Translations under genes and position numbers: made by a program | Part shown: positions 35,864 to 63,039 of the stretch, in pieces | Layout of the letters: the number at the start of each line of letters is the position of its first letter | How positions within the stretch are numbered: position 1 is the stretch's first letter | The notes under the pieces: generated by a model | The model's input: the letters and a program-made list of their open reading frames with translations, nothing else | The model's database searches: none | What the model was told of the DNA's origin: nothing | Assembly (NCBI GenBank): GCA_963828735.1 | Contig: CAWHFW010000002.1 | Location: forward strand, 96,001-160,000 | Source of the DNA: an uncultured Gemmatimonadales bacterium | GTDB taxonomy: Bacteria > Gemmatimonadota > Gemmatimonadetes > Gemmatimonadales > GWC2-71-9 | DNA length: 64,000 bases | Reading direction: 5' to 3'

Positions 35864-37793
35864 TTACTCGACCACCCTCCCGGCCACGGGCGTTGCGCCC
35901 GTCAGGGTCCGCGCCGTCTCGACCAGGCCGATGAACTCGCCGCGATAGCCCTGCTCGTCGGCGCCCCGGGCGCCGCGGGCGAGACTCAACGTCTGCTCCC
36001 AGCTCGCCTGCCCCTTGTTCTCCGAATCGCGCAACAGCATCGCGAATTCCGCCACCGCCGAGGCGAACCGCATGTCCTCCGTCGCGGCGCCGGTTTGGTC
36101 GGCCACTGGCGTCTCCAGCAGCCTGCTGGTGGAACCCTTCGGGTCCTTGTACCGGAGCCGGACGGTCAGCAGCTCCGAGCTGTGCTTCGCTCCCGGCCGG
36201 AGAGAGGTCTCCTGATACGTAAGGCTGTCCTCCGACAGCGTGACCGACTGCGCCCCCACGGGCACCACCTCGTACAGGGCCGTGACCGAGTGGCCTGAAC
36301 CCAGCTCGCCGGCGTCCTTCCGGTCGTCCTTGAAGTCCTCCTTCTGGAGCAGCCGGTTCTCGTAGCCGAGCAGCCGGTACGACTGCACGCGGGCCGGGTT
36401 GAACTCCACCTGGATCTTCACGTCCTTCGCGACCGTAAACAGCGTCCCGCCGAACTCCTGCACGAACACCTTCTGCGCCTCGCGGAAGCTGTCGATGTAG
36501 GCATAGTGGCCATTACCTTTGTCGGCCATCTGTTCCATCTTCGAGTCCTTGAGGTTGCCCGGTGCCGAAGCCGAGCACGGTCAGGAATGTGCCCTCCTCG
36601 CGGCGCTGCTCGATCAGACGCACCATCTCCGCATCGCTGCTCACGCCGATGTTGAAGTCACCGTCCGTCGCCAGGATGACCCGGTTGTTGCCCTCCGAGT
36701 TGAAGTGCTCCTTGGCGACGTCGTAAGCGAGCCGGATCCCCGCCCCGCCAGCGGTCGAGCCGCCCGCCTGCAGCCGATCGATCGCCTGCAGGATCGCGGT
36801 CTTGTCATCGCCCCCCGTGGGCGGCAGCACGAGGCCCGCCGCGCCCGCGTAGACCACGATGGCGACCCGGTCCTCTGGTCGAAGCTCTCGGACCAGCGCG
36901 CGAAAGGCTTGCTGGACCAGCGGCAGCTTGTCCGGCATGTCCATCGAGCCCGACACGTCGATCAGAAATACGAGGTTGCTGGGCGGCAGGTCTCGGGTCG
37001 GGATGCGACGCGCCTGGAGCCCGATCCGGACCAGTCGGTGATCCGGTGCCCAGGGGCACGACGCCACCTCCGTTGACACGGCGAACGGGTGCGATCCGCT
37101 GCGGTCCGGATACCGATACGGGAAATAGTTCACCAGCTCTTCGAGCCTGACCGCGTCCACCGGTGGCAGCGCGCCCTGGCTCAGGAACCGGCGCACGTTG
37201 CTGTATGAGGCCGCATCCACATCGATCGAAAAGGTCGACAAGGGGTTCGATGATGCGCCCAGGAACCGGTTCTCGTTCACGACATTGTACGCCTCGGTGT
37301 TGAACTCTCCGGATGGGGATGCCCCGGCGATCATGGCGGCGTTGCCGACGAAGCCGAGCGCGTCCTTACGCATCGCCCGCTCGGCGCTCTTCATCGCGGG
37401 AACGGGAGAGGCCTGCGGCCGCTCTTCGTCCTTGGCCTCGACGAGTTGCTTCGCATCGTGGGCGCTCGCCAGGGTGAAGTTGAGGGTCAGCGTTGCCCCC
37501 GCCCGCACCGTTCCGCCGCCCTCGGCGAACGCGTAGCCGGTCCGCGCGGCTCGCACGGTGACTGTGCCTGCCGGGACCGCGGGCAGGAGAAAGGCGCCGG
37601 AGGTATCGGTGATCGCCGAAAGCGCCGTTCCGACAACAAACACCTGGGCGTGCGCGATCGGCGCCCCTTGCCCATCTCGCACGTGGCCGGCGATGCGTCC
37701 GGTTGCCGGGCCGGTTCGGACCGGGGCCGCGGCGGTGGTCGCCAGCGTGACGAAGAGAACGGCAACGAGCCACGGCATGCGTGCGGCGTGCAT
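35864..37793 (-). CDS. YfbK-like VWA protein with N-terminal carboxypeptidase-regulatory-like domain (frameshift near 36559)
   Basis: STFSIDVDAASYSNVRR, NLVFLIDVSGSM, ATDGDFNIG, AKDVKIQVEFNP, DAGELG. Confidence 0.88.
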
Positions 37794-48808: not shown

Positions 48809-50965
48809 TCATTTCAGGAACAGCAGCGTCCGGTAGTTCGGCAGCGGCCACAGATCCGCCGCGACCACCGCCTCGAGCGCGTCACCCGTTTCCCGCAATC
48901 GCTGCATCGCCGGCTTCAGCTCCCGCGCAATCTGCGCGGCGTGTCGTGCGGGGTCCGCCTCCTGGTGGCCGGCAAGCCGCTCCACCTCGGCGGTCCGGGC
49001 ACGGAACTGCGTGACGAGCTCGACCAGCTCGCGCAGGGCCTGCGTGCTGTCGCTGGCGTCCACGCCGGCCGCTTTGGTCGCGGCAACCGCGTCGGCCACC
49101 CGGCGCTGATGCTCCAGCGCGGCGGGCAGGAGCTGCGACTTCGCGATCAGGACCATCGTTTCCGCCTCGATACCGAGCTGCTTGACGAACTTCTCGATGG
49201 CGATGTGGATCCGCGAGTCGTACTCCGACCTGGTGAGCACACCGTACTTCCGGAACAGGTCCGAGTTCTTCTTGGCCCGCAGCACCTGGAACGCCGCCAC
49301 CGAGTCCTTGAGATTCGGCAGTCCGCGGCGATCGGCCTCGGCGTGCCACTCCTCGGAGTAGTTGTCCCCGTCGAAGATGACCCGCTTGTGCTCCTTGATG
49401 AGGCGCTTGAGCACGCTCAGCACGCCCTGCTGCAGGCGCGCGGGCGACGGCTTGGCGCCGACGGCCTTCTCGAGCTGCGTGGCCACGTAGTCGAGCGATT
49501 CGGCCACCATCGTGTTGAGCACGGTGTTGGGCCAGGCTATGCTTGCGCTCGAGCCCACCGCCCGGAACTCGAACTTGTTCCCCGTGAAGGCGAACGGCGA
49601 GGTCCGGTTCCGGTCGCCCGAGTGCCGCGGGAGCTGGGGGAGCGTCCTCGCGCCGAGGTCGAGGGTGCCGCCACGGATGGTCCGCTTGGGCAATCCCTTC
49701 TCCACCTGCTCCAGGATGTCGCCCAGCATCTTGCCGAGGAAGATCGAGATGATGGCCGGCGGCGCTTCGTTGGCGCCCAGGCGGTGGTCGTTCGCCGCCG
49801 AGGCAATCGACGCCCGCAGGAGGTCGGCGTGGAGGTCCACGGCCCGGATCGTCGCCACGAGGAACACCAGGAACTGCATGTTGGTGTGCGTGTCGTCCCG
49901 CGGATCGAGCAGGTTGACGCCGGTGTCCGTGCTCATGGACCAGTTGTTGTGCTTCCCGGATCCGTTGACGCCGGCGAACGGCTTCTCGTGGAGCAGCGCC
50001 TGGAGCCCGTACCGCGGGGCCACCCGCTTCAGGGTCTCCATGATGAGCATCTGGTGGTCGCTCGCGATGTGGCTCGGCTCGAACAGGGGCGCGATCTCGT
50101 ACTGGCCGGGCGCGACCTCGTTGTGCCGGGTCTTCACCGGGACGCCAAGCCGATAGAGCTCGCGCTCCGATTCGGACATGAACGCGAGAACACGCGGCGG
50201 GATCGTCCCGAAATAGTGATCCTCGAGCTGCTGACCCTTGGGTGGCTTGGCGCCGAACAGGGTGCGCTCGGATGTGATCAGGTCGGGCCGCTTGTAGTAC
50301 AGGTCGCGGTCGATCAGGAAGTACTCCTGCTCGGGGCCGACCGTGGTGTAGACCCGGTTCACACCCGCGTCGGTGCCGAAGATCCGGAGCACGCGCAGCG
50401 CCTGGTGCGAGAGCGCCTCGACGGATCGAAGCAGCGGGATCTTGGTGTCGAGCGCCTCGCCGGTCCAGGACACGAAGGCCGTCGGAATGCAGAGGGTGAC
50501 ATTATTGTCGCCCCGCATGAGGAACGCCGGACTGGTGGCGTCCCAGGCGGTGTAGCCGCGGGCCTCGAAGGTGGCGCGGATGCCGCCCGACGGAAAGCTC
50601 GATGCATCCGGCTCGCCCTGCACCAAGTCGCTTCCCGAGAAGTTGAACACCACCCCGCCGTTCCCGTCCGGCGCGGCGAGCGAGTCGTGCTTCTCGGCGG
50701 TCAGGCCGGTGAGGGGCTGGAACCAGTGGGTATAGTGGGTGGCGCCGTTCTCGATCGCCCAATCCTTCATCGTGGCCGCGACGACGTCGGCCACGGCCGG
50801 GTCGAGCGGTTCGCCGTGGTCGATGGTGCGGAGGAGGCTCCGATAGACCTCCTTCGGGAGACGCTTCTGCATGATGCTGCGCGAGAAGATGTCGCTGCCG
50901 AAGATCGAGTCGATCCGGTCGGCCGGCGTCGGCGCGCCGTCGAGCGTGCGTGCGGGTGTGGTCAC
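48809..50965 (-). CDS. glnA: Glutamine synthetase type III
   Basis: [82 protein letters not shown]. Confidence 0.95.
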
Positions 50966-51125
50966 GAGCGGGTGGACCTCGGGGCGAAGGGTGGACGGGA
51001 AAGGAGACAAGATAATCGAGCAGGCGGAAAACAGTCACGGCGGAGACTGCCGTCTCCGCCGCGTCCGCTGGCTCGACCCGAACCACGCGGGCTCTAGGCG
51101 ACCCATCCCTCCAGGCCATCCCGCG

Positions 51126-52121
51126 TCACGCGACCGCCGCCGGCTCGGTCAGCGCATCATCGACGTCGGAAAAATCGGGCTCGGCCAGCTCGACGTAGAC
51201 CGGATTCGACAAGTACCGCTCCCCGAAATCGCACACGACCGACACGATGAGCTTGCCGGCGCTCTCCGGTCGGGCCGCGATCTGGAGAGCGGCCCACGTG
51301 ATCGACCCGCTCGAAATGCCCGCGAAGATCGCCTCCTCCCGCACCAGGCGCCGCGCCGTCGCGATCGCGTCCTCGTTGCTCACGCGCACGACCTCGTCGT
51401 AGATCTTGGTGTCGAGCAGGCTCGGAATGAACCCCGCCCCGATCCCCTGCTGTCGGTGGGGCGAGGGCTGGCCGCCCGAGAGCACCGGGCTCTCGGCCGG
51501 CTCGACGGCGACGATATGGATGCCGGGCTTCCGCTCACGCAGGTAGCGCCCGGCCCCGGTGATCGTTCCGCCCGTGCCGACGCCCGAGACGAACACGTCC
51601 ACCTTGCCTTCCGTGTCGTCCCAGATCTCCGGGCCGGTCGCGCGATAGTGAATGGCCGGATTGGCCGGATTGTCGAACTGGCGCGGCATCCAGGCGCGAT
51701 CACCCAGACGAGCCAGGATGCCCTCGGCTCGCGCGATCGCTCCCTTCATGCCCTTGGGCCCCTCGGTGAGGACGACCTTGCACCCCAGCGCCCGCAGCAG
51801 GTTCCGCCGCTCGAGCGTCATGGTCTCCGGCATCGTGAAGATGCAGCGATAGCCCCGCGCGGCGGCGACGTAGGCGAGGCCGATGCCGGTGTTCCCCGAC
51901 GTGGGCTCGACGATGAACATGCCCGGGCGCAGCCGGCCCTTCTCGACCGCGTCGTTGATCATCGCGGCGCCGATCCGATCCTTCACTGACTCGTACGGGT
52001 TGTAGCCCTCGTGCTTGACGACGATCCGGCCCGGCAGGCCCTGGCCGAGCCGGTTGAGGCGGATGAGCGGGGTGTTGCCGACGGTCTCCGTGACGTCCTG
52101 ATAAATCCTTCCGTGGGGCAT
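51126..52121 (-). CDS. cysK: Cysteine synthase A
   Basis: [47 protein letters not shown]. Confidence 0.93.
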
Positions 52122-52182
52122 AGCGACCTCGTGGAACGGCGGGACACGCGCGGTGGCCGATGGCCCAAGATATAGTGCCCGC

Positions 52183-53202
52183 TTAGGAGGGTGGGAAGAG
52201 ATCGCGCCGCGCGCAGTCCCGGGCCAGGGCTTCGAGCGCATCGGCCCGCCACTGCCCCCGATCGGTCAGCCGGTCGAGCAGGGCTCCCGGAAGCGCGGGC
52301 CGGCCCACACGGCCGCCCACGATGCCCCCCGTCATCGCCGCCATGGTGTCGGTGTCCCCCCCGACCTCGATCGCAGTGCAGACCGCGGTCCAGTAGTCGT
52401 CCGGCGTCCGGAGGGCGGCGTACAGGCTCCACGCCACGCTCGGCACCACATGGCTCGAGATGCCGCGCCAGGCCCCGACCTCGCCGGGGTCCAGCCTGGC
52501 TTCGCGCAGGCGTTCCTTGGCGGAGTCCGGGGGCAGGTCGAGCCAGTCTCCCAGTGCGTGCACGACGTCCGCCATCTCCGCATCGGCCCCTGCCACGACG
52601 CGGGCGACCTCTCGGAGCACCCGCGCGCGGTCGATCGGACCTGGCTGCGCGATCAAGCCCGCCGCGACCGCCACCGCCACGGCCCCACCAACACAGCGGG
52701 AATCGAGATGCGTCACGCGGCATTGCTCGGCGGCCACGGACGCCAGTCGCTCGGGATCGTGGGCGAGGAGAACGCCGAGCGGCGCCACGCGCATGGCGCC
52801 GCCATTCCCCGCGTAGGGTGCCGGCGCGCCGGCCTCCGCCCAGGTCGCGCCGGCGATGAGCCGCGCCGCGGCGCCATGGGTGCCAGGGCCCGCCCCGACC
52901 GGCTTGCCGATGCGAAACAGCTCCGCCACGCCGGCGGCAAACGCAGCCGGCTCCCAGCGACCCGCGTCGCGCACCGAGCGAAGGAGTACGCGGGCGAGCT
53001 GGGTATCGTCACTGTATTGGCCGAAGGGAAAGTTGTGGTGGGCTCGCGTGCCCACCGTTCGGGGGCCGAGCTCGGTTCGGACATACGCTTCGGCGAGAGC
53101 GCAGGGAGCCGCCTCCACGACGAATCCCAGGGCGTCACCGAGCGCGAGCCCGAGGAGGGAGCCCGCAACCCGATCTGGGACCGCCAGGGGCGCCACGCTC
53201 AT
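52183..53202 (-). CDS. ADP-ribosylglycohydrolase family protein
   Basis: [31 protein letters not shown]. Confidence 0.9.
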
Positions 53203-53358
53203 CGCGGAACGAATGCCGGTACAGGGCCACCGGCCCGCGCCGTGTCGGGACCCGATCGGTCAGTGGCCGGGCGCGGTGTCACGTGCCGGTCATGTCGGTG
53301 ATGACAGGACCAGTGTTCAGGTGGAACATGGAAGGTAAGAAACGGATGGTGGAAGAGC

Positions 53359-53385
53359 CGGACAAGGAGGGACTCGAATGCTCGA
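53359..53385 (-). repeat. Degenerate copy of the tRNA-Ser(CGA) 3' end (older att site)
   Basis: CGGACAAGGAGGGACTCGAATGCTCGA vs CGGACAGGGAGGGATTCGAACCCTCGA (57153-57179), 23/27 identical. Confidence 0.65.
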
Positions 53386-53469
53386 TGCTTTTCGGGACGT
53401 CGGCGTTCGAGATTGATCCATCGCTGGCCGGGCGGCAGCGAGCTGCCGCCCGGCCGAGCGGGGTATGAA

Positions 53470-53772
53470 CTAGGATCCTACTTGCTCACCCAGGAAAGTC
53501 TTGGCCTTGGTCACTTCCGCATCCCATTTCGTCAACTGCTCGGGGGTCAGGAATTTCACGACCCGCTCGCGCATGGTGCCGCGAACTTCCTGGATCTTGG
53601 ACACGGCCTCGGCTTTGGTGATGTTCGGATTCTTCTGGCGGACTTCGTCGATCTTGTCGTGCGCATTCTCGAGTGCGGTCTTGAGCTGGGTCTTCTGGGC
53701 GTCGGACAGATTGAGATCGGCGGCGAAACGCTTGAGCTCTGTCTCGACGACTTCGATAAGTTCGGCTCTCAT
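53470..53772 (-). CDS. Small helical protein with LTxxQ-like motifs (Spy/CpxP-like), no signal peptide
   Basis: GAGGAG RBS; LNLSDAQK and FLTPEQ. Confidence 0.65.
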   Translation of the reverse strand: MRAELIEVVETELKRFAADLNLSDAQKTQLKTALENAHDKIDEVRQKNPNITKAEAVSKIQEVRGTMRERVVKFLTPEQLTKWDAEVTKAKTFLGEQVGS

Positions 53773-54203
53773 GAATGTACTCCTCATTATAGTGTGACGG
53801 GTCAGCTCAGCTTTCGACGGCCGGCTGATTGGTCCCTGAAAATGCCGGGGCTCTTGCTCCGGTTGCGACTCGGGAACCTCCCGAATGGTCCCCTGTGTGC
53901 GGAGCGTCCTCGTTGCCGACGCTCGGATCTCCGGGCTCGTCCGCTGGGCACGAGCGACGGCTGAAAGAGCGCCCCGCGTACCCCTACCAGGCCATTGAAC
54001 TTTGGTGCAACGGGGCCGACACGGTCACGGCGTCTGCTCGCCTTGTCGGGGTTACGGTTGTGGCGGGGTGGTCACTTCGCGGCGACCGAGGTCGCACGCG
54101 ACGGCGAGGCCGCCGCACTGGTGTGGCGAGCAAGGGTGTGGATAGCCGTCGCGTCCGCCGGAAGATCGCGGACGCGGGGAGGCGGGCTGGTTCGTGGGAG
54201 TTT

Positions 54204-54265
54204 GGTGCGACGGACAGGGAGGGATTCGAACCCTCGAAGGGATTGCTCCCTTACCGGTTTTCGAG
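54204..54265 (-). repeat. tRNA-Ser(CGA) 3'-half duplicate (att site)
   Basis: 62-bp direct repeat of 57146-57207 with 3 mismatches, ending at the anticodon loop. Confidence 0.92.
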
Positions 54266-54413
54266 GCAAACACCGCGAACGCATGAACTTTCGTCCGGAG
54301 CGGAAATAACTCGAATCCCACCCTGCCCTGTCGATCTGCGAGAGGATATGCGGCCACAGATTTCGCGCAACTCTAACCCAAGCCTAACCCGACGGCGTGT
54401 CTAGGCGTGGCCC

Positions 54414-57053
54414 CTACTGCCCGTTCACCAGCCGTTCGAAGCGCGGGTTGCCCCGGAGCGGGGCGAAGTTGGGGTCGATCTTGAGCCAGCCGGGCGACAG
54501 GTAATAGGGAATCTTGAGCAGCGACTCGAGTCGGTCGAGGGCCGGTTCGGACTCACCCACGATGAGATGGGTCAAGGCAAGCATACGCAGGAGGTCCGCC
54601 CCCTGCGCCGCGTTCCTGCTGACTGGTAATAGCTCCACGCCGCGCTCTCCTTCGTGGACCGCCTCGGCGCGACGGCCCAGGAATGCGAGCGCCAGGCCCA
54701 GGTACGCGTGGGTTGGAGCGTCCTCAGGTACGTCGCGGAGTCGAGCCTCAAAAGCGACGCGGGCGGAATCGGCATAGGCGCGCGCCAGTGCCTGAGCCCC
54801 TCGCAGCGCGTTGGTTTGGGCGAGCGCGAGGCCCCACGCAGCCCGGTCGCCGCCAAACGCCTCGGGCGAGAGTCGCAGAAGCTGCTGCTGCTGCTCATCG
54901 TCGAGCACCCAGTACAGGTCGGCCATGGCGACTTGTGCCACAAGGGCGGCGGTGTCTACATCTACCGGCACGGCTCGGAGCACCGACCGCGCCCCGGCCA
55001 AGTCACCCTGGGCTAGGTGGACGGAGGTCACTGTAACAATCGCCCAGAGGTTGCTCGGCGCGAGTGCCCGCGCGCGCTCAGCCGTGGACAGTGCCTCTGC
55101 GTAGCGACGGCGGGTGAGCAGTGGCCAGGTGAGTGAATGCGCAATTTCGACGCGTCGCGGATCGAGCACTTCCGCCTCTCGCATGTGCGCAATTCCCTCG
55201 TCAACCCGCCTGAGGAGGAACTCAGCCCACCCGGCCCAGGCCAGCAGCCTTGCGTCCTTCGGCGCAAGCTGCCGCCCCTTCGTGTACTGCTCGAGCGCGC
55301 GCGGCGCGTCGTACCGCACCATTTCGTAGTAGTTGCCAAGCGCCAGATACCCGTCGGCACCCTTGGGCGCGAGCGTTAGCGACCGCTCAGCCGCGCGCTG
55401 AGCGGCCATTGCCGCTGCTGAGTGGTCTGGGGCGTTCCAATAGAGGAACGAGTAGGCCCTCGAAAGCTGAGCCCAGGCTAGGGCGAAGCTCGAATCGAGG
55501 GTCACCGCCCGCTCGTAATAGTCTCGCGCGCGCCGAAGCGCCGCCTGATCCAGGCCAGGGAGACCGTCGGCGGCCTCCTCGCCACGGAGGAACGCATCGT
55601 ACGCGGCCAGGTTTTGAGTCGGGCGTTCGCGGATTCGCTCCTGCTCGCCCGCGCCGAGGGCTACACCGAGCGCCTCGGCCACTCGGCCGGCGATTTGCCC
55701 CTGCACCTGGAACACGTCGGTAAGCGGGGCCTCGAAGGGTGCTTGCCACTTGGTCGAAGCCGTCGTGACCTGGATCAGTTCGGGACTGACGCGCACGCGA
55801 CTCGTTCCGCCTGATGGCTTTGCCTTTTCCCAGCGGACGGTGCCGGTCAGAAGAAACTGCACCCCCAGCTCGCGCCCGATCTGCTGCGGGCTCTTAGTGG
55901 TCTGCTTGTATTGGACTGAGCTGGTGCGGGCGATCACTTCGAGGCCAGGTAGCGCGGCAAGCTTCCCGCGCACCTCATCCGTAACACCATCGGCGAAGTA
56001 ATCATCGTCGCGCTGGCCGAGGTTCTCGAACGGGAGCACGGCCAGCCGTTTCGGGCCAGCGGCCCCGGGTTCTGGCCGGGCGCGTAACCAAGCGAGCAGC
56101 ACCCCCGCCCCCACCAGGATGCCCAGCGCAAGCGTGGCCAAAGCGCGCGGCACCCGCCGATGGCCCCCTGCTGCCATCGGTTGCGAAGCCGCAGGGGTAG
56201 TAGTCGTGTCGGAGGTAACGTGCGGTCGAGCGAGCGCACGGGCGAAGTCTGCAGCGGTGGTAAACCGGTCGGCCGGGGTCACGGCGAGGGCCTGGCTGAT
56301 CGCCTGCTCGATGGCCTCCGGCACGCTGGCGCGCAGCGTCCGCACGTGCGGCAGCGGCTCGAGCACCCGTTTGGCGATCACGACCTGCGGCGTCCGGCCG
56401 GTGTACGGGACCTCGCCGGTCAGCATCTCGTACAGGACGCAGCCGAGACTGTAGAGGTCCGACCGCCCATCCACATTCGACGTGCCGTCCGCCTGCTCTG
56501 GGCTCATATAGGCGGGCGTGCCGACTGCCACACCCGTGGCCGTCAGGTGCTCGGCGTCAGCGACCTGCACTGCTCGGGCGATGCCGAAGTCAGCGACCAA
56601 CGCGTGGCCCTGGCCGAGCAGGATGTTCTCGGGCTTGATGTCGCGGTGCACGATGCTCTGGCTGTGCGCGTAGCCCAGCGCGTCGGCCACCTCGCGGGTG
56701 ATTTGCAGCGCATCGTCGAGCGGCAATTGAGCCTCGCGCCGCAGGCGATCCCGAAGGGAGTCGCCCTCGACGTAGGGCATGGTGTACCAGAGCTGGCCAG
56801 CCGCTTCGCCGGAATCGAGCACGGGCAGGATGTGTGGGTGCTGCAGGCGGGCGGTGGTCCGGATTTCCCGCTGGAAGCGCTCAGGGCCGAGGGTGGCGGC
56901 GAGGTCGGGATGCAAGACCTTGAACGCGACCGGGCGGTCATGCCGGAGATCGTGGGCCAGGAACACCGTGGCCATGCCACCCCGCCCCAGCTCGCGCTCG
57001 AGTCGGTAGCGGTCAGCCAAGCCGCTCTGGAGCTGTTCGCGGAGGTCTGGCAC
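54414..57053 (-). CDS. Hanks-type Ser/Thr kinase with TolB-like and TPR domains
   Basis: LGRGGMATV, HRDIKPEN, DFG, GTPAYMSPEQ; LAVLPFENL; TPRs; LRGNPRF C-terminus. Confidence 0.95.
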   Translation of the reverse strand: MPDLREQLQSGLADRYRLERELGRGGMATVFLAHDLRHDRPVAFKVLHPDLAATLGPERFQREIRTTARLQHPHILPVLDSGEAAGQLWYTMPYVEGDSLRDRLRREAQLPLDDALQITREVADALGYAHSQSIVHRDIKPENILLGQGHALVADFGIARAVQVADAEHLTATGVAVGTPAYMSPEQADGTSNVDGRSDLYSLGCVLYEMLTGEVPYTGRTPQVVIAKRVLEPLPHVRTLRASVPEAIEQAISQALAVTPADRFTTAADFARALARPHVTSDTTTTPAASQPMAAGGHRRVPRALATLALGILVGAGVLLAWLRARPEPGAAGPKRLAVLPFENLGQRDDDYFADGVTDEVRGKLAALPGLEVIARTSSVQYKQTTKSPQQIGRELGVQFLLTGTVRWEKAKPSGGTSRVRVSPELIQVTTASTKWQAPFEAPLTDVFQVQGQIAGRVAEALGVALGAGEQERIRERPTQNLAAYDAFLRGEEAADGLPGLDQAALRRARDYYERAVTLDSSFALAWAQLSRAYSFLYWNAPDHSAAAMAAQRAAERSLTLAPKGADGYLALGNYYEMVRYDAPRALEQYTKGRQLAPKDARLLAWAGWAEFLLRRVDEGIAHMREAEVLDPRRVEIAHSLTWPLLTRRRYAEALSTAERARALAPSNLWAIVTVTSVHLAQGDLAGARSVLRAVPVDVDTAALVAQVAMADLYWVLDDEQQQQLLRLSPEAFGGDRAAWGLALAQTNALRGAQALARAYADSARVAFEARLRDVPEDAPTHAYLGLALAFLGRRAEAVHEGERGVELLPVSRNAAQGADLLRMLALTHLIVGESEPALDRLESLLKIPYYLSPGWLKIDPNFAPLRGNPRFERLVNGQ

Positions 57054-57152
57054 CTATGACCTGCCTAGAAGGCTGCGCACACCAAGCATACCGCGTGGCT
57101 AAGGAGGAGGATAGGGACCAGCGAAAGAGGCCGGGATGAAGCGGAGGTGCAA

Positions 57153-57239
57153 CGGACAGGGAGGGATTCGAACCCTCGAAGGGGTTGCCCCCTTACCGGT
57201 TTTCGAGACCGGCTCCTTCAGCCACTCGGACACCTGTCC
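57153..57239 (-). tRNA. tRNA-Ser(CGA)
   Basis: GGACAGG acceptor, CCGGT-CTCGAAA-ACCGG anticodon arm, variable arm with GCAA loop, GGTTCGAATCC. Confidence 0.96.
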
Positions 57240-57377
57240 TGAGCGATCCAACCTCGCTCGGGCGCGAAGATTACAACCCCCGAGGCCGCTTTGCCAGTCA
57301 GTTTCGGGGCCGCACCCAAACGCGCCGCGTTCGGGCGCGCCACGGCGGTTACGTGCGTCGAACCGCCGTGCGCCCTG

Positions 57378-57854
57378 CTACAGCACGGAGCGGCGGTCCT
57401 TGAAGAATCGCTTGAGCAGTTCGGCGCAATCCTCGGCGAAGAGCCCGCTCACGACCTCCGGCCGATGATTGAGACGAGGATGGCGCAAGAGGTCATAGAC
57501 CGAACCGGACATGCCCGCGCGCAGGTCCTGCGCGCCGTACACCACTCGGCCCACCTTCGCGAGGACGATCGCGCCGGCGCACTGGGCGCACGGTTCCAGG
57601 GTCACGTAGAGCGTGGCGAACGGAAGCCGGTCTTCGCCAGCGCGGTGGAGCGCCCGGTGGATCGCCAGGAGCTCCGCATGTGCGGTCGGGTCGCGGCGCT
57701 GGATGGTCTCGTTGTGCGCCTCGGCCAGCACTTCGCCATCGGCGACGATCACCGCTCCGATCGGCACCTCTTCGCGCACGGAGGCGGCGCGCGCCAGGCG
57801 CAACGCCGCCTGCATACCCTGCAGGTCGCTCGGTGACGGTGTCCCCCTACGCAC
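57378..57854 (-). CDS. tadA: tRNA adenosine(34) deaminase
   Basis: [29 protein letters not shown]; start GTG 57854 or ATG 57815. Confidence 0.93.
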
Positions 57855-60474
57855 TGGCGCGCTCGGGGGCCGTCGCCACCCGGGCAAAGCGCAGATGCTC
57901 GTCCGCTCGCTCGGCACGGATGGTGTCGCCCTCGTGGAAGTTTCCCTCGAGAATCTCGAGCGCGATCGGGTTCTGGAGCTCGCGCTGGATCACGCGCTTG
58001 AGCGGTCGAGCCCCGTAGACCGGATCGTACCCCTGCGCGGCCAGGAGCTCCTTGGCCTCCGGCGCGACCTCGAGCCGGATGTGCCGGGCCGCCAGCAGAT
58101 CGTCCAAATGACGCAGCTGGATGTCCACGATGTGCACCAGGTCCTCGCGGCTGAGCGGACGGAAGACGATGATCTCGTCCACCCGATTGAGGAACTCGGG
58201 ACGGAAGAAATTCCGGAGCTCGTCCCGGACCCGCTGTTCCACCCGCTCCCACGCCTTGTCGTCCACCTGCGCGCCGGCGTCCACGATGATCTGGCTCCCG
58301 ATGTTGCTGGTCATGATGATCACCGCGTTGCGGAAATCCACGAGCCGACCCTGGCTGTCCGTGAGTCGGCCGTCATCGAGAATCTGGAGCAGCACGTTGA
58401 ACACGTCCGGGTGCGCTTTCTCGATCTCGTCGAAGAGAATGACGCTGTACGGCCGGCGGCGGACCGCCTCGGTGAGCTGGCCGCCCTCCTCGTATCCGAC
58501 GTACCCCGGCGGCGCGCCGATGAGCCGGGCCACCGAATGCTTCTCCATGTACTCCGACATGTCGATCCGGATCATGGCCCGCTCGTCGTCGAACAGGAAC
58601 TCGGCCAGGGCCCGTGCCGTCTCGGTCTTTCCCACCCCCGTGGGGCCCAGGAAAATGAACGAGCCCGTGGGCCGGTTGGGGTCGCCCAGTCCGGCTCGGC
58701 TGCGTCGAACGGCGTTCGCCACGCTCGTGATCGGGGCTCGCTGGCCGATGACACGGCGGCCGAGCTCGTCCTCGAGCTTCACCAGGCGCTCGCGCTCGCT
58801 CTCGAGCATCTTGCTCACCGGGATCCCGGTCCATTTGCTCACGATCTCGGCGATGTCCTCCGCGTCGACCTCTTCCCGCAGGTAGCGCGCGCGCGACTGC
58901 GTTCCCTGGAGCCGCTTCTCGTCCTCCTGCAGCTTCCGCTCGAGCTCCGGCAAGCGCCCATAACGGAGCTCGGCGGCGCGCTGCAGATCCCCGCGGCGCG
59001 TGGCCTGCTCGATCTCGGCGCGGACGGTCTCGGTCTCCGCCCTGATCTGCTGGATCTCGCCGATAGCCCCTTTCTCTGCCTGCCACTGCGCCTTCATGGC
59101 GTCCGCGCGCTCGCGCAGCTCGGCGATCTCCGCCTCGAGCGTCTGCCGGCGCTCGACAGCCGCTTTGTCCTTCTCCTTGAGCAGCGCCTGGCGCTCGATC
59201 TGGAGCTGCACGATGCGCCGCTCGACCTCGTCGATCTCCTGGGGCAGACTGTCGATCTCGATCCGAAGCCGGCTCGCGGCCTCGTCGACCAGGTCGATCG
59301 CCTTGTCCGGCAGGAACCGGTCGCCGATGTACCGGTCGGAGAGCGTGGCGGCCGCCACCAGAGCGTTGTCCGTGATCCGGACACCGTGGTGCACCTCGTA
59401 CTTCTCCTTGAGCCCGCGCAGGATCGCGATCGTGTCGGCCACGCTCGGCTCGCCCACGAGCACCGGCTGGAAGCGGCGCTCGAGCGCGGGGTCCTTCTCG
59501 ACGTGCTTGCGGTATTCGTCGAGCGTCGTGGCGCCGATCACGTGGAGCTCGCCGCGAGCCAGCGGCGGCTTGAGCATGTTGCTGGCGTCCACGGCCCCCT
59601 CGGCAGCACCGGCGCCGACGATCGTGTGCAGCTCGTCGATGAAAGTGATGAACTTCCCCTCGCTCTCGGTGAGCTCCTTCACGACCGCCTTGAGCCGTTC
59701 CTCGAACTCGCCTCGGAACTTGGCGCCCGCCAGCAGCTGACCGATATCGAGGCCGACGAGCTCCCGGTTCCGAAGCGACTCCGGCACGTCGCCGTTCACG
59801 ATGCGCTGCGCCAGACCTTCGACGATGGCCGTCTTCCCCACGCCGGGCTCGCCGATGAGGACGGGGTTGTTCTTGGTGCGCCGCGAGAGCACCTGGACGA
59901 CGCGGCGGATCTCCTCGTCGCGGCCGATCACCGGATCGAGCTTTCCGCGACGGGCCTGCTCGGTCAGGTTCCGGGTGTACCGCTCCAGCGCCTGGTACTT
60001 CTCCTCGGGCGACTGGTCGGTGACCCGATGCGAGCCGCGCACCTCGTCGAGGGCGCGCCGCAGGTCGTCGGCCGAGACCTTCTGGGCGCTCAACAGGCCC
60101 CGCAGGGCCGTGCCCTTCTCCTCGGCCATGGCGATCAACAGATGCTCGGTGGAGACATAGGTGTCACCGAGCTTGGAGGCATCCGCGTCGGCCCGGTCGA
60201 AGATGCGGTGCATCTCGCGACTGAATGACGGCTCCGCGGTTCCACCCTCCTGAGTGGGGAACCGGTCCAGCTCGCGCTCCACCGCCTGCCCCAGGCCGGT
60301 CACATTGAGACCCGCCTTCTGCAGGAGCGGCTGGACCACACCTTCGGGTTGCGCGAGAAGCGCCGCCAGCAGGTGGGCGTCGTTGACGACGGGGTTGCCG
60401 CGCCGACGGGCGAGCTCACCGGCGTCGCGGAAGGCCTCCTGGCCCTTGATGGTCAATCGCTCGGGTCGAATCAT
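57847..60474 (-). CDS. clpB: Chaperone ClpB
   Basis: [24 protein letters not shown]-domain coiled coil, [18 protein letters not shown]. Confidence 0.96.
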
Positions 60475-60610
60475 CGTCGTAGGTCGTAGGTCGTGGGTTC
60501 GCAGCCTTGCGGTGGGACACACCTCCGCAAGGCGATGGGCATCGGTCGAGGCCTTGGCCTGGGCAACGGCCGTACCGCAAATCCCTGCCACATTGACAGC
60601 CAAAGCAAGC

Positions 60611-60636
60611 GAGGGACGGCCCGCGGGCCGTCCCTC
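60611..60636 (-). terminator. Perfect palindrome right after the 60637-61089 gene
   Basis: GAGGGACGGCCCGCGGGCCGTCCCTC. Confidence 0.6.
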
Positions 60637-61089
60637 TCATTGCTGGCTGGTCACCTTCTTCTGCGCGATCATCTTGCGGGTGAACCGCTCTCCATCCACG
60701 GTGAGCTGGTAGTAGTACACACCCGAAGTTGCCTCGCTCTGACCATCCAGATACTTCCCGTCCCAGAACGCGTGGTACTCGCCGCATCGCAGTCGGAGAC
60801 TGTCCAGGCGCTCCGCGCCAGGGCGGGGTCCCGAGCCCGTGGCGAGCACGGGGATGGCGACCACCTGGACGAGCACGTTGTAGATCTTCAGACTGACGAC
60901 CGGTTGGTGTCCTCTGGCGCACACCTCCTGGGAAATCAAGAACGGAATCGTCGTCGTCGGAAAGAACGGATTGGGGTAGTTCTCCTTCAGCTCGATTCGA
61001 GGCGGGGAGACGTTCGCCTGCGCAGCCACCGGGTTTCCGACGCCCACCAGCAGCCCGAGCCACCACCCCGCCCACGCCCAGCGGACCAT
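60637..61089 (-). CDS. Secreted stand-alone FlgD-Ig/T9SS type-A CTD-like protein
   Basis: Signal peptide; NYPNPF, LKIYNV, WDGK, SGVYYYQL, RKMI; GAGGAG RBS. Confidence 0.7.
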   Translation of the reverse strand: MVRWAWAGWWLGLLVGVGNPVAAQANVSPPRIELKENYPNPFFPTTTIPFLISQEVCARGHQPVVSLKIYNVLVQVVAIPVLATGSGPRPGAERLDSLRLRCGEYHAFWDGKYLDGQSEATSGVYYYQLTVDGERFTRKMIAQKKVTSQQ

Positions 61090-61196
61090 GGGTGCTCCTC
61101 ATCAGACGGATGGAAGTACGGCGGGCACCTCCAGGAGGCGAAAGTCAAAGGCAACCGGACTACTGAGTGTAAGATTCCAGCCCAACCGGCGGTGTG

Positions 61197-63039
61197 TCAA
61201 GCGTTTCGGAGCTTCCTTGCATCTCCGACCCGCTCGGTGATTCCCTTGGCGTCGGCCCACTCGAGGAGCGGGATCATGTACTTCCTGCTGATCCCGAGGC
61301 GGTCTCGTAGGGCGGCCGGTGCGATCAGGCTCTCGCGACCGATGTCCGCCAGCGCGGCCGTGAAGCGGTCCAGAGCGGGAAGGGCGTAGTAGCGGTCCCG
61401 CTCCACTGCTTCGATCCTGCCCGCTTGAGCCGCGAGCCTGAGGATCGCACCCACATCGCGTCGGCCGGTCTCCCGCTCCAGCTCAGCCAGGGTTGGCGGG
61501 CTCAGGCCCGCCTCCTCCAGAATGCGAACGAACCGATCGATCTCCGCGTCACCGCCTTCGACCCGGGGTACGAACCCGGACAACATCGCCAGCCCGTCGC
61601 CTGCGCGAATGCGTCCCGCCGAGACGAGGTCCGTCAACGCCTGCTCGGCCAAGGCGGGCGGCGCACGAAGTCCGTGGCGAAGCGTCTCGAGCGAGAGCCC
61701 GCGGTCGCTTGGCCTGGCGCGGTGATGTGCCTTGAGCTGGCTCAGCGCCTGTGCGCCGAGCGCGGAGAGGGTCGCCTCGCGGACCCAGAGCTCGCCGACC
61801 TGGCGAAGGCCAGGGGTGGAGCGCGCCACCGCCGCCGCTTCGGCCGGCGGGAGGCCAAGGAGAATCGGCACCTCGGCGGTAGGCACGCCGGAGGGGCGAC
61901 GCTCGAGCAGTGCGGCGAATCGCGCCTCCGGGTTCTCCTCCACCAATCCGCTCGGCCAGAGGCTGCGGCGTCTCGGCGGTGAAGGATCGAGGATCCGGCC
62001 TCCGCCGATCGTGGTCACCGGACTGAAGCTTCGAAGCACGATCCGATCGCCGCCGCGAGCCACGATCGGTCCCTCGAGGGCCAGTCTGGCCAGCCCCTTC
62101 CCGCCTGGCTCGAATCGGGGCCCGCGGGTGCACCCGCGCCATCACCTCTGTGGTCCCGAGGTGGACGCGAACGCGGGCCCGCGGGGTCAGCGCGCGTGGG
62201 GCGTCTGCCCCGAGCGCCAGCTCCACATCCACCGCCCTCACCGGCGCCCATGGCGCATCGGCGGCCACGAGCCACGCCCCTCGCTGGGCCTCCTCGCGCT
62301 GCACCCCGGCCAGTCCGACGGCGGTGCGGGCGCCGGGCTGACTCTGCTGGAGCGTGGCGCCGTAGCTCTCGATGGAGCGCACGCGGGCCGGCGTGTCGGA
62401 TGGCAGCAGCCGTACCGCGTCGCCCACGGAGAGGCGCCCCGACCAGGCCGTCCCCGTGACGACCGTTCCCACACCCGCGAGCGAGAACGCGCGGTCGACC
62501 GGGAGCCGGAACAGATCAGCGCCGAGCCGCGGGCTCAGTCCGGCGGCCCGGGCGGCGAGGCGTGCGCGCAAGCCGTCGAGACCCAGGCCCGACTTGGCCG
62601 ACACCGCGATCGGCGCCTCGAATCCGACCGAAGAGCGCGCGAGACGGTCGCCCACTTCGGCCAGCACCAGCTCGAGCCAGTCGGGATCGACCAGATCCGC
62701 CTTCGTGACGACCGGAATCCCCGCGCGGACGCCGAGATGCTCGAGCACCGCCAGGTGCTCCAGGGTTTGCGGCATGATCCCTTCGTCGGCGGCGACCACC
62801 AACAACGCGAGGTCGATGCCGGATGCCCCCGCCACCATCGTGCGCACGAAATCTTCGTGGCCCGGCACGTCCACGACGCCGGCCGTGGTGCCGTTGCCGA
62901 GCGAGAGCGGAGCGAAGTTGAGGTCGATCGTGATGCCGCGCCGCCGTTCCTCGGCCAGGCGATCCATGGGGCGGCCCGTGAGTGCGGCCACCAGCGCGGA
63001 CTTGCCGTGGTCGATGTGTCCAGCCGTTCCGATGATCAC
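61197..63039 (-). CDS. selB: Selenocysteine-specific elongation factor (frameshift near 62113)
   Basis: IIGTAGHIDHGKS, EERRRGITIDL, DVPGHEDF, MPQTLEH; C-terminal winged helix LGISRKYMIPLLE. Confidence 0.93.

Follow-up and report, generated by a model that had tools for sequence, protein, structure and literature searches.

A kinase islet in tRNA-Ser(CGA) of a Gemmatimonadales bacterium is probably an integrase-less cargo unit moved by a helper element

We analyzed a 64,000-nt stretch (the window; C2:96001-160000) of the genome of an uncultured Gemmatimonadales bacterium (G000; 4.78 Mb in seven contigs, 97.5% complete and 5.2% contaminated), in which an islet holding one Ser/Thr kinase gene lies between tRNA-Ser(CGA) and a displaced copy of the 3' half of this tRNA. 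The islet is probably an integrase-less, one-armed cargo unit that travels with the aid of a helper element, and its site-specific insertion at the anticodon loop by a tyrosine integrase can be proposed with high confidence. It is bounded by a 62-nt direct repeat (54204-54265 versus 57146-57207; 95% identity, three differences), which runs from the anticodon loop to 7 nt beyond the end of the tRNA gene and is the longest direct repeat in 50000-62000, where the runners-up are about 70-80% alike over at most 35 nt. The differences lie at 54209 (outside the tRNA), 54242, and 54247. In the predicted fold, the latter two form the closing pair of the GCAA loop on a 6-bp variable arm, which is G-C in the tRNA and A-U in the copy. 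The repeat, its extent, its three differences, and the compensated pair, as given in a preliminary description of this DNA, all held in the repeat search, tRNA call, and fold. The features of the unit are as follows.

57153-57239, minus strand: intact tRNA-Ser(CGA); 57208-57239 is the host 5' part, and 57153-57207 is the 3' half with the G-C variable arm, which appears to have arrived with the unit (allele survey and host tree).
57201-57207, minus strand: anticodon loop and putative 7-bp crossover region; start of both repeat copies in all units; site class A of PMC4383910.
57054-57152, minus strand: leader from the tRNA end to the kinase start, without the tandem arm site (best matrix score, -5 bits).
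54414-57053, minus strand: gene for an 879-aa protein with a Ser/Thr kinase, a predicted membrane helix, an FlgO/TolB_N-like part, and tetratricopeptide repeats (TPRs), the sole cargo (open reading frame [ORF] call, Pfam, and feature scans).
54266-54413, minus strand: P arm of the right-hand attachment (att) site, 71-89% conserved in other species.
54372-54391, minus strand: tandem arm-type site GGTTAG-N5-GGTTAG, 107 nt before the core; the same motif is on both arms of the integrase-bearing element of the relative G107.
54204-54265, minus strand: displaced 3' half of the tRNA, in which 54242 and 54247 form the A-T closing pair, and a further 7 nt (repeat comparison and fold).

Of 103 genomes of the genus, 89, including G000, contained a match to a pattern for the tRNA 3' half. 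We examined 87 of these at 90 loci (two loci each in G057, G094, and G102); G075 and G076 were omitted because their contigs end at the tRNA. Sequence of 600 nt or more was available downstream of 85 intact tRNAs; at 69 of these, no kinase was present within 400 nt, and these empty sites bear out the view of the islet as integrated DNA. The usual gene order was tadA, tRNA, a small gene, ADP-ribosylglycohydrolase, cysK, and glnA. A kinase stood behind the tRNA at 16 loci in 15 genomes. In nine of the 87 genomes (G000, G018, G042, G064, G068, G083, G088, G093, and G094), behind it came a homologous arm, about 150 bp long, and then a displaced 3' half, the order of the unit being tRNA 3' half, short leader, kinase, 150-bp arm, and displaced 3' half; both the arm and the att copy had decayed in G042. 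Two stacked units, each with its own att, were found in G088 and in G093, and three kinases in G018, with no stack in G000. The same unit was also present in two metagenome contigs. In G012, G057, and G112, contigs end before the arm or att could be assessed.

The preliminary description had proposed that integration swapped in a foreign 3' half. The survey of arm alleles that it suggested for empty-site relatives bears this out and adds the direction of the exchange. An AAGGG-type arm was found in 11 of the 89 genomes. This type, to which the G-C half of the intact G000 tRNA belongs, preceded a kinase at 8 of 10 intact tRNAs, compared with 8 of 75 for other arms (Fisher p 1e-5, which is overstated because kin are not independent). 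On a host tree built from glnA and cysK of 28 chosen loci, nine AAGGG carriers gave 8 changes, against a mean of 7.8 for shuffled labels, and the carriers were rejected as a host clade (approximately unbiased test, p-AU 6e-33). The last displaced half in G064, G068, G083, and G088 had the arm type of empty-site tree neighbors. Taken together, the association of arm and kinase, the scattered carriers, and the displaced halves matching empty-site neighbors indicate, as judged from sequence, that the G-C half in the intact tRNA is the incoming half. G000 was the exception: there the displaced half, too, is AAGGG-type, whereas the nearest hosts carry ATACC or AAACC.

The right-hand arm contains CTAACCC at 54373 and 54384, a tandem that had been likened to arm-type sites. 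A matrix of the tandem motif, trained on 13 sites including that of G000, gave one strong match in the 4.78-Mb genome, the islet's own. The motif stood 105-110 nt ahead of the core in 13 of 13 arms retaining the core, and these arms are only 71-89% alike. At the same tRNA, G107 holds an element in which the motif lies 51 nt behind the gene (21.8 bits), together with a frameshifted integrase directed toward the tRNA, unrelated cargo, a kinase-tail remnant, the arm, and an att copy. Because the motif is on both arms of this integrase-bearing element, it behaves as arm-type sites do, and with its constant spacing in 13 arms the earlier suggestion is supported. Kinase leaders lack the motif, scoring -5 bits in G000 and at most 9.9 bits (G093/G094), compared with 21.8 bits in G107. 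Furthermore, a short piece of a G107-type integrase lies behind the tRNA in G050, and G063 has a small two-armed remnant, then a truncated att, and then the kinase. A two-armed element of the G107 type, with its broken tyrosine integrase, is likely the helper type.

The G107 integrase is a member of a divergent family of tyrosine recombinases, about 430 aa long and comprising 178 proteins, many of them with PF00589; matches to this family were obtained in 12 of 401 genomes of the order. Near-complete members beside a tRNA were found at tRNA-Ile(GAT) or behind tRNA-Ser(GGA). An alignment-based scan detected the family on 11 viral contigs, five of which had a tRNA-Ile or tRNA-Ala 3' fragment nearby, whereas a single-protein scan of viral contigs with the integrase gave no match. 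Neither the tandem motif nor the arm was seen at 25 integrase loci inspected; a DNA search with the G107 integrase region returned only G107 (1 of 103 genomes), and a class-wide search for the arm pattern missed G000 itself and was hence uninformative. The five ORFs scanned in the G107 element included no Pfam-named transfer gene. No integrase was found inside the islet, and no PF00589 match was obtained there or on contig C2. Proteins of the family often fall below the PF00589 cut-off (proteins P0001-P0120; L192-L202) and occur at tRNA-Ile, -Ser, -Gly, and -Val of Gemmatimonadales and on viral contigs; integrase-dependent island finders could miss this family.

The mobility claimed for the islet was supported by movement between species, with kinase parts 94-99% identical in hosts that are 79-84% identical elsewhere. 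Between G000 and G112, the outer-domain DNA differed at 8 of 1491 sites (99.4% identical), compared with 83.7% identity for clpB and 78.7% for tadA; between G000 and G068, it was 94.5% identical, compared with 81.0% for glnA. The kinase of the nearest host, G083 (glnA 88.7%), was only 68-71% identical to that of G000, and G000 plus G068 was rejected as a host clade (p-AU 2e-5). The trees of the kinase domain and the outer domain disagree, with 87-89% identical kinase domains and 56-65% identical outer parts in G018 and G088, and kinases at the tRNA-Ser(CGA) site interleave with G000 paralogues from other tRNA islands and a tandem cluster.

In the route that we propose, a tyrosine integrase would insert the unit at the anticodon loop of tRNA-Ser(CGA), and the unit's own 3' half would rebuild the tRNA. 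A two-armed helper would integrate at the tRNA, ahead of a resident unit, and the two could then be excised jointly through the helper's tRNA-side arm and the unit's far arm. When the composite enters a new host, the host 3' half would be displaced to the far end, and after the helper leaves or decays, the 3' half ahead of the kinase would become that of the host tRNA. Resident units may exchange kinase parts via homologous recombination. Phage, conjugation, and transformation are candidate vehicles between cells. A more speculative extension, which we put forward tentatively and consider doubtful as a whole, is a genus-wide standing exchange in which one-armed kinase units hitchhike on phage-type integrative elements, form stacks, and exchange sensor domains; each arrival would replace the variable arm of the host's only tRNA-Ser(CGA), sometimes permanently (G045, G106). 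If this were true, the arm alleles of the tRNA would date past traffic in cassettes, and the kinases would be a traded sensor repertoire, perhaps for defense or neighbor sensing.

Several observations weigh against the helper route. No intact integrase of the family was found at tRNA-Ser(CGA), the intact ones in the order being located at other tRNAs, and G000 holds only a broken remnant of the family, at tRNA-Ile. Neither a composite of helper and kinase with a working integrase nor an excised circle was seen at the integrase loci of the order or in public-run contigs. The G107 genome is 62% complete, and G112 is 7% contaminated with a contig that ends inside the kinase, which makes G068 the safer witness of transfer. 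The leaders of G068 and G112 are unlike that of G000 in otherwise close units, implying that the link between the 3' half and a particular kinase is not strict. The AAGGG arm is present in G045 and G106, which lack the unit, and it may be native somewhere. In G049, G067, and G113, a kinase lies behind the tRNA and the arm or att copy was not detected, which weakens a strict link between them. One alternative is that a single deletion removed the integrase and the tRNA-side arm from a two-armed element, and that the islet is its dead remainder, which undergoes no more site-specific events and spreads only by homologous recombination through the tRNA and kinase ends, following transformation or transduction. 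The identity to G112 and G068 is patchy and peaks inside the gene, the leaders are unlike, the DNA of the kinase start and tail is conserved, a ComEC gene is present in G000, and G107 has a kinase-tail remnant before the arm, all of which agree with such a remainder. We nevertheless regard it as unlikely, because the arm is joined at the same base to differing host-type 3' halves in unrelated hosts, an att stands at each joint of the stacks (G088, G093), the motif and its spacing are kept despite the divergence of the arms, and flanking genes remain 65-85% identical. Less likely again is a single cassette mobilized in trans, with a visiting integrase using a degenerate arm in the leader to excise and reinsert a circle. 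The leader has a conserved motif at a similar distance from the tRNA, reaching 9.9 bits in G093/G094, but the score in G000 is far from that of the true G107 arm, and the motif resembles the TAnnnT boxes of other genes and tRNAs. Short contigs in runs X2, X4, and X6 join 7-14 nt of arm to a 3' half, with one or two differences at arm sites, as a circle junction with a G-C half would; a right-hand att of the ordinary kind that carries a G-C half, like the one in G018, would also give this junction. Twenty public runs match the stretch, and the contigs examined cover the kinase, arm, and flanks in pieces, in which gaps in cover prove nothing; no excision joint was seen in these piecemeal contigs. 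The check for attP junction reads proposed in the preliminary description, made here on contigs of public runs, thus yielded no excised circle, only the short joins in X2, X4, and X6. Finally, nothing mobile may be involved: the tRNA 3' end could have been duplicated locally, on either side of a kinase gene ancestral to the chromosome. The G+C content of the islet (0.67) is near that of the genome (about 0.69), and three relatives (G049, G067, and G113) have a kinase there and no detected repeat. This explanation is largely refuted and highly improbable: the kinase is absent from 69 of 85 loci, cross-species identity is above that of core genes, and the arm sites are conserved and common to an integrase-bearing element.

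The A-T closing pair of the displaced half has to be weighed separately, and its substitutions are known from the single G000 assembly. Among the 89 intact genus tRNAs, the closing pair was C-G in 58, G-C in 30, T-G in one, and A-T in none, and the A-T pair was not found outside G000 in GTDB representatives, 400 genomes of the order, or viral contigs. With the arms of the nearest hosts also quite different, the proposal that both halves came from functional tRNA alleles gained no support for the A-T half. A native AAGGG arm in the G000 lineage was rejected, as G083 (in its displaced half), G085, G073, G086, and G052 carry ATACC or AAACC. The A-T half is most likely an imported-type arm left by an earlier arrival, not the ancestral arm of the lineage; we read it in this way because G045 and G106 keep an AAGGG arm without the unit. 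It is possible, although we doubt it, that the pair never worked in a tRNA, being either an assembly error or the product of a single mutation in the displaced copy and hairpin-templated repair of the short inverted repeat. The absence of the pair from intact tRNAs and from the collections searched is consistent with this, and among the matches listed in contigs of four public runs, no piece spanned both sites with zero differences. However, the chance of two random changes in 55 nt giving a compensated pair is 0.0025, or 0.007 for transitions only (computed after the fact), and other att copies (G068, G088, and G042) decay without compensation. A sequence-driven read error should also strike the intact tRNA, which has an identical context; a methylation-type read error was thought unlikely on the same ground.

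The islet had been taken to suggest a mobile route for expansion of this kinase family, and a survey of paralogues between tRNA repeats had been recommended. In G000, tblastn identified 92 kinase loci, of which 72 are close. We defined 15 tRNA-att intervals in this genome, together 232 kb or 4.9% of its length; fragments of only 25-26 nt define two of them. Inside seven of these intervals lie 13 of the 72 close kinases, compared with 4.3 and 2.3 under random placement (p 0.01 and 0.001), in a test that counts the tRNA-Ser(CGA) islet itself and takes random placement, not accessory DNA, as the background. The remaining 59 of the 72 are outside, and for 30 of 62 gene-called close paralogues a second kinase lies no more than 5 kb away, in some cases head to tail. 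The mobile route does contribute to the expansion of the family, but its share is small: it accounts for some and not most copies. Kinase-only units are also found at tRNA-Leu(TAG) and twice in a tRNA-Gln array. The tRNA-Leu(TAG) islet (C5:851077-854299) has tail DNA near-identical to that of the tRNA-Ser(CGA) kinase and no clear tandem arm site. About eight close paralogues, three of them head to tail, are clustered at C5:1999502-2022779, outside tRNA intervals, with outer domains 53-57% identical to that of the islet kinase, and a further paralogue (C5:1069209-1071878) lies between copies of a 58-bp direct repeat unrelated to a tRNA. Copies of tRNA 3' halves form an array of roughly 16-20 units at tRNA-Gln(CTG) and five at tRNA-Phe (C5:2457709-2520650 and C5:1638442-1657696) and occur at about 12 more tRNAs; a 5'-half island is present at tRNA-Lys(TTT), and several tRNA islands of G000 have tandem repeats with an 11-bp period about 110 nt ahead of the core. 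No paper on the expansion or mobility of this kinase family was found in the literature searched.

The kinase gene is the only gene between the repeat copies. A test of composition gave no signal. Its Pkinase domain spans residues 16-266 (PF00069, 167 bits in Pfam), with intact catalytic motifs (Gly loop, VAxK lysine, HRDxKxxN, DFG, and APE-type), and a hydrophobic helix is located at about residues 303-323. Thus, a single gene with a kinase and TPRs was present as first described; its TolB-like part, an FlgO/TolB_N-like domain, comes from Atlas features only (0.93-0.95, a lead only), with no Pfam match. NF033483 (PknB/Stk1-like) matched below its cut-off, and no named family reached its cut-off for this protein. 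We predict that the product spans the membrane once, as a receptor whose outer domain is variable. In the leader, the conserved motif at 57082-57094 is likely a -10 promoter box; it resembles TAnnnT boxes ahead of other genes and tRNAs in G000, and a sigma-70 promoter scan returned 0 sites.

Beyond the att copy lies one further feature.

53470-53787, minus strand: small ORF with weak Spy/LTXXQ likeness, patchy in the genus and outside the kinase unit.

This ORF, possibly a remainder of an earlier unit, occupies the place of the small gene usual behind tRNA-Ser(CGA), and homologues (58-69%) were found beside tRNA-Ser(CGA) in only G081, G087, and G105 (L145, L150, and L165). Other changes were seen around the site. 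A gene pair at window positions 35864-37793, upstream of tRNA-Ser(GGA) in G000, precedes tRNA-Ser(CGA) in G017, G093, G094, and G112 (L044, L085, L086, L088, and L091); the two tRNAs have a similar 5' part, and upstream DNA may move between them. The tadA gene is reversed behind the tRNA or att copy in L095 (G054) and L150 (G087), a sign of inversion at the site. At tRNA-Ser(GGA), a distant kinase paralogue lies behind the tRNA in G004 (L034), and tRNA-Ser-like copies recur in G109 (L103), along with a broken integrase of the helper family.

These results describe a concrete route by which a large kinase family may be traded between species of an abundant soil phylum, although it covers less than one-fifth of the close paralogues. 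They also suggest that an island can do more than restore the variable arm of a tRNA and may exchange all of it. The variable arm is a main contact of seryl-tRNA synthetase and is read by shape more than by sequence, which would explain the tolerance of arm swaps. Island finders that depend on an integrase will not detect integrase-less units of this kind, and the 3' halves of tRNAs at these sites cannot be relied on as lineage markers.

In the sections available of the Islander description (PMC4383910), an island fragment restores the tRNA, and the regenerated tRNA and displaced fragment mark the island ends. The islet is likewise bounded by an intact tRNA gene and a co-oriented displaced fragment, with an empty site in relatives. 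However, the islands described there carry a tyrosine integrase, which the islet lacks, so the Islander filter would reject it, and their restoring copy is near-identical, whereas the unit's fragment exchanges the entire variable arm, up to some 10 bases in relatives. For cis-mobilizable elements (CIMEs) of the ICESt1/ICESt3 type, the available parts of PMC5704250 and PMC7563491 describe decay to integrase-less elements, accretion, and cis-mobilization. Similarly, the unit has no recombination or transfer genes, carries its cargo between att sites at a gene end, and would be expected to transfer only with an incoming element; tandem elements at the target gene occur in G018, G088, G093, and G063, G000 itself having a single one. 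CIMEs as described there derive from conjugative or mobilizable elements and keep both attL and attR, whereas the unit has the core at both ends and arm sites on the far side only. No relaxase was seen, and the integrase family of the likely helper is found on viral contigs. The cargo of the unit is, moreover, repeatedly one receptor-kinase family.

The unit also resembles integron gene cassettes, which are single-gene, integrase-less units that stack behind a fixed site. Integron cassettes end in an attC hairpin, whereas the unit ends in a 150-bp arm and a tRNA 3' half with double-stranded joints, and integron arrays are headed by IntI and attI, whereas tadA and the tRNA precede the unit on a contig without a PF00589 match. 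In addition, the units appear to carry their own promoter and have no resident integrase. The kinase shares with Hanks-type Ser/Thr receptor kinases the intact catalytic motifs, one predicted membrane helix, and a putative outer sensor region; PknB/Stk1 has outer PASTA domains, whereas the islet kinase has an outer FlgO/TolB_N-like part with TPRs and about 70-90 paralogues in its genome. No account of whole variable-arm exchange was found in the literature covered, which stopped short of Williams 2002, where differences in sequence between the tRNA halves of islands and hosts may well be reported. The general process of accretion and cis-mobilization is already known, and the unit is a clear variant of genomic-island biology.

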